Assembly (NCBI RefSeq): GCF_030013205.1
Contig: NZ_CP122648.1
DNA length: 64,000 nucleotides
Strand: one strand, 5' to 3'
DNA from: Escherichia coli
Lineage (GTDB): Bacteria > Pseudomonadota > Gammaproteobacteria > Enterobacterales > Enterobacteriaceae
Part shown: piece after piece, positions 8,251 through 51,880 of the stretch
Numbering within the stretch: position 1 is the first letter of the stretch
Layout of the letters: the number at the start of each line of letters is the position of its first letter
Notes under the pieces: model-generated
Told to the model about the DNA's origin: nothing
Databases searched by the model: none
What the model saw: only the letters and a program-made list of their open reading frames with translations
Translations under genes and position numbers: made by a program

Positions 8251-10321
8251 TCTGGCCGCGATGCTGCGCCTGCCCGCAAACCTGAAATCGACACAATGGC
8301 AGATCCTTGCCGGACCGATTTTGATCTTGCTGATTTTGTCGATGATGGTGCTGCCATTGCCTGCATTCATTCTCGACCTGCTGTTTACCTTTAATATCGC
8401 CTTGTCGATCATGGTGTTGCTGGTGGCGATGTTTACCCAGCGCACGCTTGAGTTTGCTGCGTTTCCGACGATTCTGTTGTTTACCACGTTGTTGCGTCTG
8501 GCACTTAATGTGGCTTCAACCCGTATCATTTTGATGGAAGGGCATACCGGCGCGGCGGCGGCTGGGAAGGTGGTCGAAGCGTTCGGTCACTTCCTCGTTG
8601 GTGGCAATTTCGCTATCGGTATCGTGGTGTTCGTCATTCTCGTGATCATCAACTTTATGGTCATTACCAAAGGTGCCGGGCGTATTGCGGAAGTGGGCGC
8701 GCGCTTTGTTCTCGATGGTATGCCGGGTAAGCAGATGGCGATTGACGCCGACCTTAACGCCGGATTGATTGGTGAAGATGAGGCGAAAAAACGCCGCTCC
8801 GAAGTGACTCAGGAAGCCGATTTTTACGGTTCAATGGACGGGGCAAGTAAGTTTGTTCGCGGCGATGCCATCGCCGGGATCCTCATCATGGTCATAAACG
8901 TTGTCGGTGGGTTGCTGGTCGGCGTGCTGCAACATGGCATGAGCATGGGACACGCCGCGGAAAGTTATACGCTATTGACCATTGGCGACGGTCTGGTGGC
9001 ACAAATTCCGGCGTTGGTGATTTCTACCGCCGCGGGGGTCATCGTTACGCGTGTCAGCACCGATCAGGATGTTGGCGAGCAGATGGTGAATCAGCTTTTC
9101 AGTAACCCAAGCGTTATGTTGTTAAGCGCCGCCGTGCTCGGTTTACTCGGCCTGGTGCCTGGAATGCCGAACCTGGTATTTTTGCTGTTCACTGCCGGAT
9201 TGCTGGGACTGGCCTGGTGGATCCGCGGACGTGAACAAAAAGCGCCTGCCGAACCAAAACCAGTAAAAATGGCAGAGAATAATACCGTTGTCGAAGCGAC
9301 GTGGAACGATGTACAACTGGAAGATTCTCTGGGAATGGAAGTGGGTTATCGACTGATCCCGATGGTCGATTTCCAGCAGGATGGTGAGTTGTTGGGCCGT
9401 ATACGCAGTATCCGCAAGAAATTTGCCCAGGAGATGGGGTTTCTGCCGCCGGTGGTGCACATTCGTGACAATATGGATCTGCAACCTGCCCGCTATCGCA
9501 TTTTGATGAAAGGCGTAGAGATTGGCACTGGCGATGCCTATCCGGGGCGCTGGCTGGCAATTAACCCAGGTACCGCTGCCGGGACGTTACCTGGTGAGGC
9601 GACCGTCGATCCGGCATTTGGCCTGAATGCTATCTGGATTGAAAGTGCGCTTAAAGAACAGGCGCAGATTCAGGGGTACACCGTGGTTGAGGCCAGCACG
9701 GTGGTGGCAACGCATCTTAACCACCTCATTAGCCAGCATGCCGCAGAGCTGTTTGGTCGTCAGGAGGCGCAACAGCTGTTGGATCGCGTCGCCCAGGAGA
9801 TGCCAAAGCTGACGGAAGATCTCGTTCCTGGCGTCGTCACGCTCACCACACTGCATAAAGTGCTGCAAAATCTCCTCGATGAAAAAGTACCGATTCGCGA
9901 TATGCGCACCATTCTCGAAACGCTGGCGGAACATGCGCCCATCCAAAGCGATCCACATGAATTAACCGCCGTCGTGCGCGTGGCGTTGGGACGGGCGATT
10001 ACCCAGCAGTGGTTTCCTGGCAAAGATGAAGTCCATGTTATTGGCCTTGATACGCCGCTGGAACGTTTGTTACTACAGGCGTTGCAGGGTGGGGGCGGAC
10101 TGGAGCCAGGGCTGGCGGATCGTTTGCTGGCGCAAACTCAGGAAGCGCTATCCCGTCAGGAGATGTTGGGTGCGCCGCCTGTATTGTTGGTGAACCACGC
10201 GCTGCGACCATTATTGTCTCGTTTCCTGCGCCGCAGCCTGCCGCAGTTAGTGGTGCTGTCGAATCTGGAACTATCTGATAACCGACATATCCGCATGACG
10301 GCGACAATTGGCGGTAAATGA
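8243..10321 (+). CDS. flhA: Flagellar export apparatus protein FlhA
   Basis: 692 aa from ATG 8243 (MSNLAAMLRL); overlaps flhB end by 8 nt; six-frame ORF starts at 8168. Confidence 0.95.
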   Translation: MSNLAAMLRLPANLKSTQWQILAGPILILLILSMMVLPLPAFILDLLFTFNIALSIMVLLVAMFTQRTLEFAAFPTILLFTTLLRLALNVASTRIILMEGHTGAAAAGKVVEAFGHFLVGGNFAIGIVVFVILVIINFMVITKGAGRIAEVGARFVLDGMPGKQMAIDADLNAGLIGEDEAKKRRSEVTQEADFYGSMDGASKFVRGDAIAGILIMVINVVGGLLVGVLQHGMSMGHAAESYTLLTIGDGLVAQIPALVISTAAGVIVTRVSTDQDVGEQMVNQLFSNPSVMLLSAAVLGLLGLVPGMPNLVFLLFTAGLLGLAWWIRGREQKAPAEPKPVKMAENNTVVEATWNDVQLEDSLGMEVGYRLIPMVDFQQDGELLGRIRSIRKKFAQEMGFLPPVVHIRDNMDLQPARYRILMKGVEIGTGDAYPGRWLAINPGTAAGTLPGEATVDPAFGLNAIWIESALKEQAQIQGYTVVEASTVVATHLNHLISQHAAELFGRQEAQQLLDRVAQEMPKLTEDLVPGVVTLTTLHKVLQNLLDEKVPIRDMRTILETLAEHAPIQSDPHELTAVVRVALGRAITQQWFPGKDEVHVIGLDTPLERLLLQALQGGGGLEPGLADRLLAQTQEALSRQEMLGAPPVLLVNHALRPLLSRFLRRSLPQLVVLSNLELSDNRHIRMTATIGGK

Positions 10322-13285: not shown

Positions 13286-14041
<756 letters not shown>

Positions 14042-14087
14042 TTTTTACCGTTGCATCATGTCGCCCAATATGATGCTTGCTCGTACC

Positions 14088-14120
14088 AGGCCCCTGCAAT
14101 TTCAACAGGGGCCTTTTTTT
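14088..14120 (+). terminator. Rho-independent terminator downstream of cutC
   Basis: aggcccctg-caatttcaa-caggggcc followed by a T7 run. Confidence 0.8.
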
Positions 14121-23679: not shown

Positions 23680-23796
23680 TATGACTCAAATACACGAAAT
23701 CATTCGCGTTGCATCGAGGCGGCAACTGAGTGAACTCCCATGAGCATAGATAACTATGTGAATGGGATGAGCGAAGGCAGTCAACGAAGAGGCAGC

Positions 23797-24249
23797 GTGA
23801 AGGATAAAGTGTATAAGCGTCCCGTTTCGATCTTAGTGGTCATCTATGCACAAGATACGAAACGGGTGCTGATGTTGCAGCGGCGTGACGATCCCGATTT
23901 CTGGCAGTCGGTAACCGGCAGCGTGGAAGAGGGGGAAACCGCGCCGCAAGCTGCCATGCGCGAAGTAAAGGAAGAGGTCACCATTGATGTTGTCGCTGAA
24001 CAACTGACCTTAATTGACTGTCAGCGCACGGTAGAGTTTGAAATTTTTTCACATTTACGTCATCGCTATGCGCCGGGCGTGACGCGTAATACGGAATCAT
24101 GGTTCTGTCTTGCGCTTCCGCACGAGCGCCAGATCGTTTTCACTGAACATCTGGCTTACAAGTGGCTTGATGCGTCTGCTGCGGCGGCGCTCACTAAGTC
24201 CTGGAGCAACCGGCAGGCGATTGAACAGTTTGTAATTAACGCTGCCTGA
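23797..24249 (+). CDS. nudB: Dihydroneopterin triphosphate pyrophosphatase NudB (Nudix)
   Basis: 150 aa from GTG 23797 ((M)[10 protein letters not shown]); Nudix box [21 protein letters not shown]. Confidence 0.9.
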
Positions 24250-27069: not shown

Positions 27070-28083
<1,014 letters not shown>

Positions 28084-28212
28084 GTCGGATCGGTCGCTCG
28101 CGGCGCATCCGACACTGGCAGTGTTGCCTGATGCGCCGCCGTTCGCGTCTTATCAGGCCAGCCAGAGATAGCGAACCGTAGGTCGGATAAGGCGCTCGCG
28201 CCGCATCCGACA
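28084..28212. repeat. BIME: cluster of three REP units between ruvB and znuB
   Basis: gtcggatcggtcgctcgcggcgcatccgac; tgcctgatgcgccgccgttcgcgtcttatcaggcc; gtaggtcggataaggcgctcgcgccgcatccgaca. Confidence 0.75.
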
Positions 28213-28230
28213 AATGTGTTCAGCGACAGA

Positions 28231-29016
28231 TTAGCTGGCCTGCTTTTTCATCATACTGATAATAAATAACAGTGCCGCACATAGCACCACCGACGGACCT
28301 GCAGGTGTATCATAAAATGCGGAAAAGGTTAAACCGCCAGTCACTGCCACCATCCCCACCAAAACAGCGATACCAGCCATCTGTTCCGGCGTGCGGGCAA
28401 AGCGACGCGCAGTAGCTGCAGGAATAATTAGCAACGAAGTAATAATCAACGCGCCGACAAATTTCATCGCTACACCAATCGTCAATGCCGTCACCAGCAT
28501 CAACAACAATTTCACGCGCTGTAATTTCACACCATCAACAAACGCCAGATCCGGGCTAATCGTCATCGACAGCAAATTGCGCCATTGCCAGAACAAAATC
28601 GCCACCACGATGACCACGCCAATTGCAATAGAGATGAGATCTTCTGGTGTCACTGCCAGCAAATCACCGAACAGGTAAGCCATCAAATCAACACGAATAT
28701 TAGACATCAGACTAACGACCACCAGGCCCAGCGACAGGGCACTGTGCGCCATAATCCCTAATAACGTGTCGATCGCCAGCTGTGGACGCTTCTCCAGCCA
28801 TACCAGACCGCCCGCCAGCAGCAGCGTAACGGCAATTACCGCATAGAATGGATTCACGTCCAGCAACAAACCAAACGCGACGCCAAGTAATGAGGCATGA
28901 GCCAGCGTATCACCGAAATAAGACATACGACGCCAGACCACAAACGAACCCAGCGGACCCGCGGCACAGGCGAGCATGATCCCGGCTAACCAACCGGGAA
29001 ATAATAATTCAATCAT
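28231..29016 (-). CDS. znuB: Zinc ABC transporter permease ZnuB
   Basis: 261 aa; polytopic membrane protein. Confidence 0.95.
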
Positions 29017-33298: not shown

Positions 33299-33336
33299 GT
33301 AGGCCGGATGAGGCGTTTTCGCCGCATCCGGCAACG
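33299..33336. repeat. REP element between lpxM and pykA
   Basis: gtaggccggatgaggcgttttcgccgcatccggcaacg. Confidence 0.7.
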
Positions 33337-33339
33337 TAC

Positions 33340-50486: not shown

Positions 50487-50828
50487 ATGATGAAAAAAAG
50501 TATTCTGGCGTTTCTGTTACTCACCAGTTCTGCAGCGGCGCTGGCTGCACCGCAGGTGATTACCGTTAGCCGTTTTGAAGTGGGTAAAGACAAATGGGCG
50601 TTTAATCGCGAAGAGGTGATGCTGACTTGCCGACCGGGTAATGCTTTGTATGTCATCAACCCAAGTACCCTCGTGCAGTATCCTTTAAACGATATCGCAC
50701 AAAAGGAAGTTGCCAGTGGGAAGACTAAAGCCCAACCCATTTCGGTGATTCAGATTGATGATCCTAACAATCCCGGCGAAAAAATGAGTCTGGCACCGTT
50801 TATAGAACGAGCTGAAAAACTCTGTTAA
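50487..50828 (+). CDS. yebY: Uncharacterized periplasmic protein YebY (DUF2511)
   Basis: 113 aa; signal peptide [20 protein letters not shown]. Confidence 0.88.
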
Positions 50829-50863
50829 TTACCTAAAATAGCCTTTTGATTTCCAATAAAAAA

Positions 50864-50899
50864 ACCGCCTCAGTTCTTTCACCAGAACGGGCGGTTTTT
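50864..50899. terminator. Bidirectional terminator (yebY on +, ryeA on -)
   Basis: aaaaaaaccgcctcagttctttcaccagaacgggcggttttt. Confidence 0.7.
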
Positions 50900-51140
50900 A
50901 ACATTTAAGCTGATGGCCACCGCGCTTTTTATTGACCATTTTGCACGCAAACTGGAAAACCTGGCGTCGTCATCTATTCTTAAAGGGCAAGGCAACTAAG
51001 CCTGCATTAATGCCAACTTTTAGCGCACGGCTCTCTCCCAAGAGCCATTTCCCTGGACCGAATACAGGAATCGTGTTCGGTCTCTTTTTATCTGTTAAAA
51101 GCCAGAAGCATTCCCTTCGCTGACTTTATAGTCAACCATA
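50870..51140 (-). ncRNA. ryeA: Antisense small RNA RyeA (SraC) overlapping sdsR; ends approximate
   Basis: Known antisense partner of SdsR at this locus; 3' end assigned to the 50864-50899 terminator read on the minus strand; 5' end not determined. Confidence 0.4.
50987..51089 (+). ncRNA. sdsR: Sigma-S-dependent small RNA SdsR (RyeB)
   Basis: gcaaggcaactaagcctgcattaatgccaac...gaatcgtgttcggtctcttttt matches the SdsR sequence as I recall it; sigma-S-like -10 ctattcttaa just upstream; intrinsic terminator at 3' end. Confidence 0.7.
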
Positions 51141-51223
51141 ACACACACTCTACTGTCTGAGTCCAGCGTTTTTTAACATTCTTGTTAAGATTATGTGATC
51201 TTTAGCGCGGGAGGAAAATATTG

Positions 51224-51880
51224 ATGAAACAGCCTGCGCCCGTTTATCAGAGAATTGCGGGTCATCAATGGCGACATATCTGGCTTTCAGGCGATATACA
51301 CGGTTGTCTTGAGCAGTTGCGCCGCAAATTATGGCATTGTGGTTTTGATCCGTGGCGAGATTTACTTATCTCAGTGGGAGACGTTATCGATCGTGGGCCG
51401 CAAAGTTTACGTTGCCTGCAGTTACTGGAACAACATTGGGTTCGTGCGGTAAGAGGCAATCATGAACAGATGGCGATGGATGCGCTGACATCTCAGCAGA
51501 TGTCTTTGTGGTTGATGAATGGCGGCGACTGGTTTATTGCGCTGGCAGATAATCAACAGAAACAAGCGAAAACGACGCTGGAAAAATGTCAGCATTTGCC
51601 CTTTATTCTTGAAGTACACAGTCGCACCGGCAAACATGTTATTGCTCATGCCGATTATCCAGATGATGTTTATGAATGGCAAAAGGACGTTGATTTGCAT
51701 CAGGTCTTGTGGAGCCGCTCGCGATTAGGTGAACGCCAAAAAGGGCAGGGAATTACAGGTGCTGATCATTTCTGGTTTGGTCATACACCGTTGCGCCATC
51801 GCGTGGATATTGGCAACCTGCATTATATTGATACCGGCGCTGTCTTTGGGGGCGAACTGACTCTTGTGCAACTGCAATAA
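51224..51880 (+). CDS. pphA: Serine/threonine protein phosphatase 1 (PphA/PrpA)
   Basis: 218 aa from ATG 51224 (MKQPAPVYQRIAG); metallophosphatase motifs GDIHG and GDVIDRG, GNHE. Confidence 0.93.
   Translation: MKQPAPVYQRIAGHQWRHIWLSGDIHGCLEQLRRKLWHCGFDPWRDLLISVGDVIDRGPQSLRCLQLLEQHWVRAVRGNHEQMAMDALTSQQMSLWLMNGGDWFIALADNQQKQAKTTLEKCQHLPFILEVHSRTGKHVIAHADYPDDVYEWQKDVDLHQVLWSRSRLGERQKGQGITGADHFWFGHTPLRHRVDIGNLHYIDTGAVFGGELTLVQLQ

Follow-up and report, generated by a model that had tools for sequence, protein, structure and literature searches.

The sdsR/ryeA small-RNA locus of an Escherichia coli genome: a K-12-like sense–antisense pair and an unoccupied prophage attachment site

Introduction

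In Escherichia coli K-12 MG1655, the genes sdsR (b4433) and ryeA (b4432) lie on opposite strands between yebY and pphA and specify two small RNAs (sRNAs) of 103/104 and 272 nt. In vitro, the σS holoenzyme produces only SdsR and the σ70 holoenzyme almost only RyeA (Choi et al. 2019, PMC6610125). RyeA, which is produced in growing cells, pairs with SdsR and the duplex is degraded with RNase III; in addition, activity of the ryeA promoter hampers transcription from the sdsR promoter facing it (PMC6610125). In K-12, pphA mRNA derives mainly from an sdsR-pphA transcript formed by read-through of the SdsR terminator; pphA is lowered by ryeA transcription and not by RyeA RNA supplied in trans (PMC6610125). 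E. coli SdsR represses tolC, yhcB and, less certainly, mutS, whose response in the K-12 promoter mutants was not as expected (PMC6610125). Excess SdsR is toxic in K-12 through repression of yhcB (PMC6610125), and because this repression stops growth the pair has been classed as a type VIII toxin–antitoxin (TA) system. SdsR-RyeA is one of the two validated founding examples of that type in TADB 3.0. The other, CreT-CreA, is associated with CRISPR-Cas and has an antitoxin that works via Cascade, whereas SdsR-RyeA relies on direct antisense pairing, RNase III and transcriptional interference.

The second well-described pair is SdsR/SraC of Salmonella enterica (Frohlich et al. 2012, 2016). Probing with lead and RNase T1 showed that nucleotides (nt) 18–42 of Salmonella SdsR are single-stranded, and full-length and RNase E-processed SdsR have two pairing domains with differing target sets (PMC5137417). 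SdsR acts in trans; its RpoS-dependent rise in stationary phase and its association with Hfq have been demonstrated for the K-12 sequence and in Salmonella (PMC6610125, PMC3333887, PMC5137417). The cytosine at −13, the −35 region and the spacer layout of its promoter are σS-selective features, and RyeA/SraC is regarded as poorly conserved (PMC3333887). E. coli lacks ompD, which is the principal target in Salmonella.

A third property of the locus concerns mobile elements. According to later summaries of Balbontin et al. (2008), the last 23 bp of ryeB (sdsR) are an integration site for phages and islands in Salmonella (PMC7380047, PMC3333887). For phage PhiW104, these summaries place the recombination core in the last ~23–26 bp of SdsR; the phage supplies a replacement 3' end, so that SdsR is rebuilt at attL, and the 5' part of RyeA and its promoter go to attR.

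Here, we analyze the corresponding locus in a 64,000-nt stretch of E. coli DNA (assembly GCF_030013205.1, contig NZ_CP122648.1), hereafter the window. A preliminary description, made from the sequence alone, had recognized an SdsR/RyeA pair between yebY and pphA.

Results and Discussion

Identification of the Locus and Its Elements

Judging from its sequence, the yebY–pphA spacer of the window is almost certainly an ordinary E. coli sdsR/ryeA locus that carries no prophage. It is collinear with the curated K-12 annotation and 99% identical to it, which agrees with the placement between yebY and pphA in the preliminary description. SdsR starts 159 nt past yebY, and pphA 134 nt past SdsR. The elements that we delimited are as follows.

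50487–50828, plus strand: yebY coding sequence (CDS), from the ORF and the RefSeq annotation of 100%-identical genomes; last gene of yobA-copD(yebZ)-yebY.
50858–50899, both strands: two-way intrinsic terminator, with a GC-rich stem core at 50865–50894, a T-run at 50895–50899 for yebY (plus) and a U-run at 50864–50858 for RyeA (minus).
50953–50981, plus strand: sdsR σS promoter, with a −35-like TGGAAA at 50953–50958, a 16-bp spacer, C(−13) at 50974, the −10 hexamer TATTCT at 50975–50980 and an A/T-rich discriminator.
50987–51089, plus strand: SdsR (RyeB) sRNA, 103 nt, from Rfam family RF00111, K-12 identity and fold.
50987–51005, plus strand: SdsR 5' hairpin in the minimum free energy (MFE) fold; structure kept, sequence variable.
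51004–51028, plus strand: single-stranded target-pairing region of SdsR (nt 18–42), unpaired in the fold and defined by probing and mutagenesis in Salmonella.
51029–51046, plus strand: SdsR stem-loop 2 (GGCUCU/AGAGCC), from the Rfam alignment and the MFE fold.
51055–51089, plus strand: SdsR Rho-independent terminator, an 11-bp stem (51055–51083) and CUUUUU, from fold and covariation; leaky in K-12.
51064–51089, no strand: prophage attachment site (attB core) in the SdsR 3' end, unoccupied, from the O26:H11 prophage junctions.
50856–51127, minus strand: RyeA (SraC) antisense sRNA, 272 nt, from the gap-free K-12 alignment and RF00101.
51135–51143, minus strand: ryeA σ70 −10 box TATGGT (51140 to 51135) with an upstream TGn (51143–51141), from a K-12 mutagenesis primer.
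51224–51880, plus strand: pphA (PrpA) serine/threonine phosphatase CDS, from the ORF and RefSeq annotation.

The whole window was scanned against Rfam at curated thresholds, which gave four matches: SdsR_RyeB, SraC_RyeA, MicL and C0465. The SdsR_RyeB family (RF00111, gathering threshold 38 bits) matches 50990–51089 on the plus strand over model positions 1–100 of 100, with 114.4 bits. The preliminary description had placed SdsR at 50987–51089 (+) and named the lack of a significant Rfam SdsR match over that interval as the observation that would tell against it; the scan returned a strong match there (E 1.8e-21). The SdsR start proposed there, 50987, is also the one published from primer extension, 1 nt past the start in the older annotation (Choi et al. 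2019, PMC6610125). The MG1655 annotation of sdsR (1923104–1923207, 104 nt) maps by gap-free alignment to 50986–51089 (+), and the K-12 3' ends at +100 to +102 correspond to 51086–51088 (PMC6610125).

The segment 50700–51300 (601 nt) has a match in 5,425 of 5,426 complete E. coli genomes, and in many of them the match is perfect (100%). SdsR is at least 99% identical in 5,208 of the 5,425. The remaining genome gave no match whatever to the locus, and one copy of the SdsR region was found on a plasmid. SdsR, the sdsR and ryeA promoters, and the SdsR and yebY/RyeA terminators are 100% identical to those of MG1655 in the gap-free alignment. Four single-nucleotide differences separate the spacer from that of K-12 (window/K-12: 51113 C/T, RyeA +15; 50922 G/A, +206; 50916 G/A, +212; 50907 A/C, +221). 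All fall in RyeA-only parts, and none in the segment complementary to SdsR, in any promoter box or in any terminator stem. That the likeness to SdsR/RyeA might be a decayed or chance match, devoid of function in this strain, is so improbable as to be negligible: the two Rfam matches have E values of 1e-21 and 1e-40, SdsR is wholly identical to that of K-12 with intact promoters and terminators, and the locus occurs in nearly every complete genome. We found no support for such a reading, and no observation speaks against the identification. The pair is real and already known, a textbook locus in its standard form.

Promoter and Structure of SdsR

A σS-type −10 element for sdsR had been proposed, and we find it as TCTATTCTT at 50973–50981, with C(−13) at 50974. 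The hexamer at 50975–50980 is exactly the one that primer PM_SdsRR replaces with CTCGAG in the K-12 promoter mutant (PMC6610125). The sdsR and ryeA promoters both escaped a generic promoter scan, since they diverge from the σ70 consensus, and the positions given here rest on the K-12 mutagenesis primers. Salmonella sdsR has the same σS promoter layout, including C(−13) and the 16-bp spacer.

The predicted fold of SdsR has an MFE of −35.2 kcal/mol (z −3.8), and none of 200 shuffled sequences folded as well. From the 5' end, the fold comprises a hairpin, a long unpaired stretch, stem-loop 2 and the terminator. This three-hairpin fold, with a single-stranded stretch between hairpins 1 and 2, is the published probed shape (PMC5137417). 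The predicted intrinsic terminator is also present, as the 11-bp stem at 51055–51083 followed by CTTTTT (−15.8 kcal/mol, z −3.8). The single-stranded nt 18–42 of Salmonella SdsR map to 51004–51028 of the window. The residues tested in Salmonella, C15, G26 and C38, fall on C51001, G51012 and C51024 (PMC5137417, PMC3333887), and the RNase E cut, mapped from Salmonella, falls between 51016 and 51017. Salmonella SdsR has the same three-hairpin fold, single-stranded nt 18–42, RNase E site and C15/G26/C38 bases. It differs by a few substitutions in the loop of the 5' hairpin and by one in the terminator stem (GUGUUCGG in the window vs GUAUUCGG).

RyeA and the Two-Way Terminator

RyeA had been expected on the minus strand, overlapping SdsR. 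The SraC_RyeA family (RF00101, gathering threshold 37 bits) matches 51093 to 50949 on that strand over the full model, with 175.1 bits (E 2.9e-40), and MG1655 ryeA (1923066–1923337, 272 nt) maps by gap-free alignment to 51127–50856 (−). Two refinements follow: RyeA, 272 nt long, begins at 51127, and the Rfam model is confined to the central 145 nt of this RNA. SdsR (50987–51089) lies wholly inside RyeA, which also spans the sdsR promoter. The two genes thus overlap on opposite strands, as the type VIII definition of TADB 3.0 specifies. In K-12, RyeA has three starts, of which the most downstream corresponds to 51127 and the others to 51128 and 51129, and its 3' RACE ends at +261 to +270 correspond to 50867–50858 (PMC6610125).

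The plus-strand ACCATA (TATGGT on the RyeA strand, 51140–51135) is the hexamer that primer PM_RyeAF replaces with CTCGAG in the K-12 ryeA promoter mutant, and mutating this −10 hexamer abolishes RyeA in K-12 (PMC6610125). At the other end, a shared terminator had been proposed near 50864–50899. The hairpin at 50860–50899 does fold on both strands (−19.8 kcal/mol, z −6.6 on the plus strand; −20.0 kcal/mol, z −5.3 on the minus strand) with a T-run after each, and on the minus strand it carries a run of 7 U. The element at 50858–50899 terminates yebY in one direction and RyeA in the other. The range 50864–51140 first proposed for the pair ends exactly at the ryeA −10 box (51135–51140) on its right side, but on its left side it misses the last ~6–8 nt of the RyeA U-tail. 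Beyond its terminator, RyeA as a whole is weakly structured (z −2.05).

The SraC_RyeA model is largely the reverse complement of SdsR and scores 51–170 bits in loci of Shewanella, Erwinia, Yersinia and Serratia; an Rfam match by itself therefore does not show that RyeA is made. In the window, the case for RyeA rests on a promoter and a terminator identical to the K-12 elements proven by mutation, RACE and in vitro transcription.

Conservation and Covariation across Species

We searched a collection of one genome per species with a pattern of the SdsR core and obtained at least 120 loci, mostly from Enterobacterales. Conservation was computed on the 111 Enterobacterales loci with full flanks among the matches listed; positions 51022–51034 and 51041–51048 were fixed by the search pattern and carry no conservation information. 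Among these loci, mean identity to the window is 77% for the sdsR promoter, 85% for SdsR nt 1–35 and 96% for nt 36–103, compared with 38% for the RyeA-only 3' part, 34% for the RyeA-only 5' part and 42% for the ryeA promoter. The conservation footprint in these 111 loci extends from the sdsR −35 box to 51089–51091, and the RyeA-only flanks are at background. Within the footprint, again in the 111 loci, positions 50953–50955 are conserved at 98–99% and C(−13) with the adjacent TA (50974–50976) at 100%; the single-stranded region 51004–51028 is conserved at 90–100%, its part from 51022 onward being fixed by the pattern.

Structure is conserved as well. Across a set of 44 diverse sequences, every cell of the terminator helix is paired (100%), and three of its pairs show changes on both sides (15 cells). 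This covariation score was reached by none of 500 shuffles, and slid controls pair in only 21–46% of cells. The 5' hairpin varies in sequence, yet a hairpin starts within the first 8 nt in all 44 homologues (mean z −1.9). For stem-loop 2, invariance across species is imposed by the search pattern, which fixes both arms, and covariation is uninformative. Terminator covariation and the 5' hairpin independently support SdsR as a structured RNA under selection.

We also considered whether the spacer hides a small protein gene, the RNAs being in reality mRNAs. The spacer (395 nt) contains short, overlapping ORFs: 38 codons on the RyeA strand (50995–50879), 28 codons at 50913–50999 and 63 codons at 50932–51123, all of which stay open in E. 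albertii and in a second E. coli. However, the aligned regions outside Escherichia contain stops or lack a start codon, and on these grounds we rejected the three ORFs. Moreover, two of them start with TTG, the conservation of the spacer tracks RNA structure and promoter boxes rather than codons, and the curated K-12 annotation has no CDS there. A protein-coding spacer is therefore very improbable.

In contrast to SdsR, RyeA appears from these alignments to be a lineage-variable add-on rather than a conserved partner: its exclusive parts are at background (34–38% vs 85–96% for SdsR), and the distance of the antisense −10 box varies by genus. The published view of RyeA/SraC as poorly conserved (PMC3333887) agrees with these figures. 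An exact antisense TATGGT lies within 95 nt downstream of SdsR in 36 of the 111 loci listed, where ~2% would be expected by chance. It sits 17–88 nt away from SdsR, and at 45 nt in E. coli only.

These data bear on a rival view of the locus, in which the functional unit is SdsR alone, as a conserved σS/Hfq core sRNA, and RyeA is a lineage-specific tuner of timing rather than a true antitoxin, so that the TA label is overstated. It is favored by the end of conservation at the SdsR boundaries, by the presence of the antisense box, at variable distance, in just 36 of the 111 listed loci, and by the prophages that separate RyeA from SdsR in ~4% of E. coli genomes (see below), in which the locus is not lost. 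Conversely, mutation of the ryeA promoter in K-12 leads to earlier SdsR, higher pphA and lower tolC and yhcB expression, the mutual degradation of the two RNAs has been demonstrated (PMC6610125), and TADB 3.0 lists the pair as an experimentally validated type VIII system. We consider this view a credible one, though we lean against it. The toxin label itself rests on overexpression phenotypes. The two views differ in framing and share the same anatomy: every element listed above is common to both.

Gene order provides further context. Among the matches listed, 95 of 102 related loci have a yebY homologue no more than 400 nt upstream of SdsR and in the same orientation, but only 5 of 97 have pphA at most 400 nt downstream. 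Homologues of pphA are found further downstream in ~25 other listed loci, 135–6,170 nt from SdsR. For this reason pphA looks like the ancestral right-hand neighbor and not cargo, and we dropped the idea that the E. coli yebY-sdsR-pphA arrangement is a derived state. We likewise rejected a genomic island bounded by att repeats and carrying pphA, as no second copy of the SdsR 3' end with up to three mismatches exists in the 64-kb window.

SdsR homologues were also detected in three Shewanella loci (L015, 9643–9745; L028, 9565–9667; L085, 6865–6966) and in an Erwinia metagenome-assembled genome (MAG; L120, 4861–4955), with scores of 82–90 bits, above the Rfam gathering threshold. They keep stem-loop 2, the linker and the terminator, and their 5' half is unrelated, corresponding to a different pairing region. 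No yebY match was found upstream of SdsR in the three Shewanella loci.

A Prophage Attachment Site in the 3' End of SdsR

In E. coli O26:H11 strain 11368, the match to the window breaks at 51090. There, a 49-kb Rac-like lambdoid prophage (region 2532300–2582200 of NC_013361.1) parts SdsR and pphA. Its genes include those for an integrase and an excisionase, ralR, recET, kilR, nleG7 and genes for the head and the tail; among its products are NleG7, a type III effector, RalR, RelBE and a protein of the Hok/Gef family. The attB core is duplicated at the two prophage ends. Window positions 51064–51089 are identical to the pphA-proximal junction and differ by two mismatches from the yebY-proximal one. 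The pphA-proximal junction retains the native ACAGGAATCGTGTTCGGTCTCTTTTT (window 51064–51089), the 5' part of RyeA and its promoter; at the yebY-proximal junction, a substitute SdsR 3' end brought in by the phage is followed by a repeat element. With the prophage in place, SdsR no longer adjoins the ryeA promoter or pphA. The arrangement resembles that described for PhiW104; the occupant differs, being a Rac-like prophage with nleG7, as does the window, where the site is empty. Indeed, the window has a single copy of the core and no integrase before pphA, which indicates an unoccupied attachment site.

Among the 5,425 E. coli genomes, ~234 matched the junction query (51040–51140) in two places, and the 235 partial matches to the 601-nt query are consistent with this number. 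The attachment site thus appears to be occupied in ~4% of complete E. coli genomes. Two strains show other breaks. In strain 2017-03-3CC (NZ_AP027783.1), the best match to the 601-nt query covers only 50994–51300 and breaks inside the SdsR 5' hairpin; in strain 17MR471 (NZ_CP051158.1), the junction query matches only to 51094. These may be other insertions or deletions.

Traces of integration were also found beyond E. coli. An integrase homologue or fragment lies within 600 nt downstream of SdsR in 20 of 83 other-species loci among the matches listed. The Salmonella downstream flank differs from that of the window; in S. enterica arizonae, a fragment of an integrase is present there. In loci L006, L058, L003, L022 and L033 and ~20 others, two to four direct CCGAAAT-like repeats followed by a second TATTCGGTCTTTT occur 40–90 nt downstream of SdsR; they are also present at 9392–9480 of locus L124, from the O26:H11 strain. 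No Rfam family matches this element. It tracks with nearby integrase homologues and is present at the O26:H11 prophage junction; we rejected it as a new RNA element, as it corresponds to phage-side att-arm DNA. When a phage database was searched for attP versions of the SdsR 3' end, just two short, weak matches came up, one in Salmonella phage ZC-S1_prp (37 nt, 89%, E 9e-5) and one in an Actinobacillus phage (E 4e-3).

The attB core lies between SdsR on one side and the ryeA promoter and pphA on the other. An insertion should therefore both free SdsR from its antisense brake and cut pphA off the sdsR promoter, and the SdsR locus could be viewed as a detachable module. We offer this reading as speculative, and on balance we think it unlikely. 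Its RyeA/SdsR half was reported for a Salmonella phage in 2008 (Balbontin et al., as summarized in PMC7380047 and PMC3333887), and we infer its pphA half and its extent in E. coli. If true, lysogeny would rewire a σS-controlled circuit, a situation that does not apply to the window, whose site is empty. This role is the part of the SdsR locus least covered in the literature that we consulted.

Other RNA Matches in the Window

The pair had been described as the only RNA gene in the window, which is incorrect: two further RNAs pass the Rfam gathering thresholds. MicL (RF02654) matches full-length at 13813–14120 (+) with 368 bits (E 5e-111); in the homologous region of K-12, micL is annotated as an ncRNA located within cutC. 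C0465 (RF00116) matches 554–481 (−) with 65.8 bits for a threshold of 40. The C0465 match overlaps DNA (within 1–600) that resembles an IS200/IS605-like IS200C tnpA element, which is multicopy in many E. coli genomes and also occurs on plasmids. No tRNA was found in the window. Below threshold, naRNA4 matches occur on both strands at 28083–28240 and 33302–33339 (38–51 bits vs 59.5) and look like REP-type repeats. A match to the Vibrio antisense RNA V_AS5 at 23688–23811 (+) (44.5 bits vs 96, E 2e-6) is probably conserved coding sequence.

Expected Function and Implications

The identity, boundaries, signals, structure and conservation of the elements are observed here; expression timing, targets, toxicity and read-through in this strain would be as in K-12 and Salmonella. 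By analogy, SdsR should be transcribed in stationary phase by σS polymerase from the promoter with C at −13, accumulating in an RpoS-dependent manner. It would bind Hfq and pair through 51004–51028 with many mRNAs, lowering their expression. The targets expected from the known systems are tolC, yhcB and mutS in E. coli, all of which lie outside the window, and ompD, crp, stpA and others in Salmonella. Cleavage by RNase E at 51016/51017 would give a shorter SdsR with a different target set. RyeA, perfectly complementary to the whole of SdsR, would be made by σ70 polymerase during growth. With some sdsR transcripts reading through into pphA, as in K-12, this gene should be under the same control by σS and by ryeA interference. 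Growth arrest by SdsR and its neutralization by RyeA are probable in this strain, given the 100% identity of SdsR to that of K-12.

The locus in the window leaves the current understanding of SdsR and RyeA unchanged. Its value is mainly for annotation. In 100%-identical genomes, PGAP annotates only yebY and pphA and leaves the spacer blank, where two characterized regulatory RNAs, the main pphA promoter and an empty prophage attachment site are located. Since the locus is intact, prophage-free and identical to that of K-12 in SdsR, promoters and terminators, results obtained in K-12 should be transferable to this strain. In stationary phase, SdsR would then affect the efflux of drugs through tolC, the biogenesis of the envelope through yhcB and, possibly, mismatch repair through mutS.
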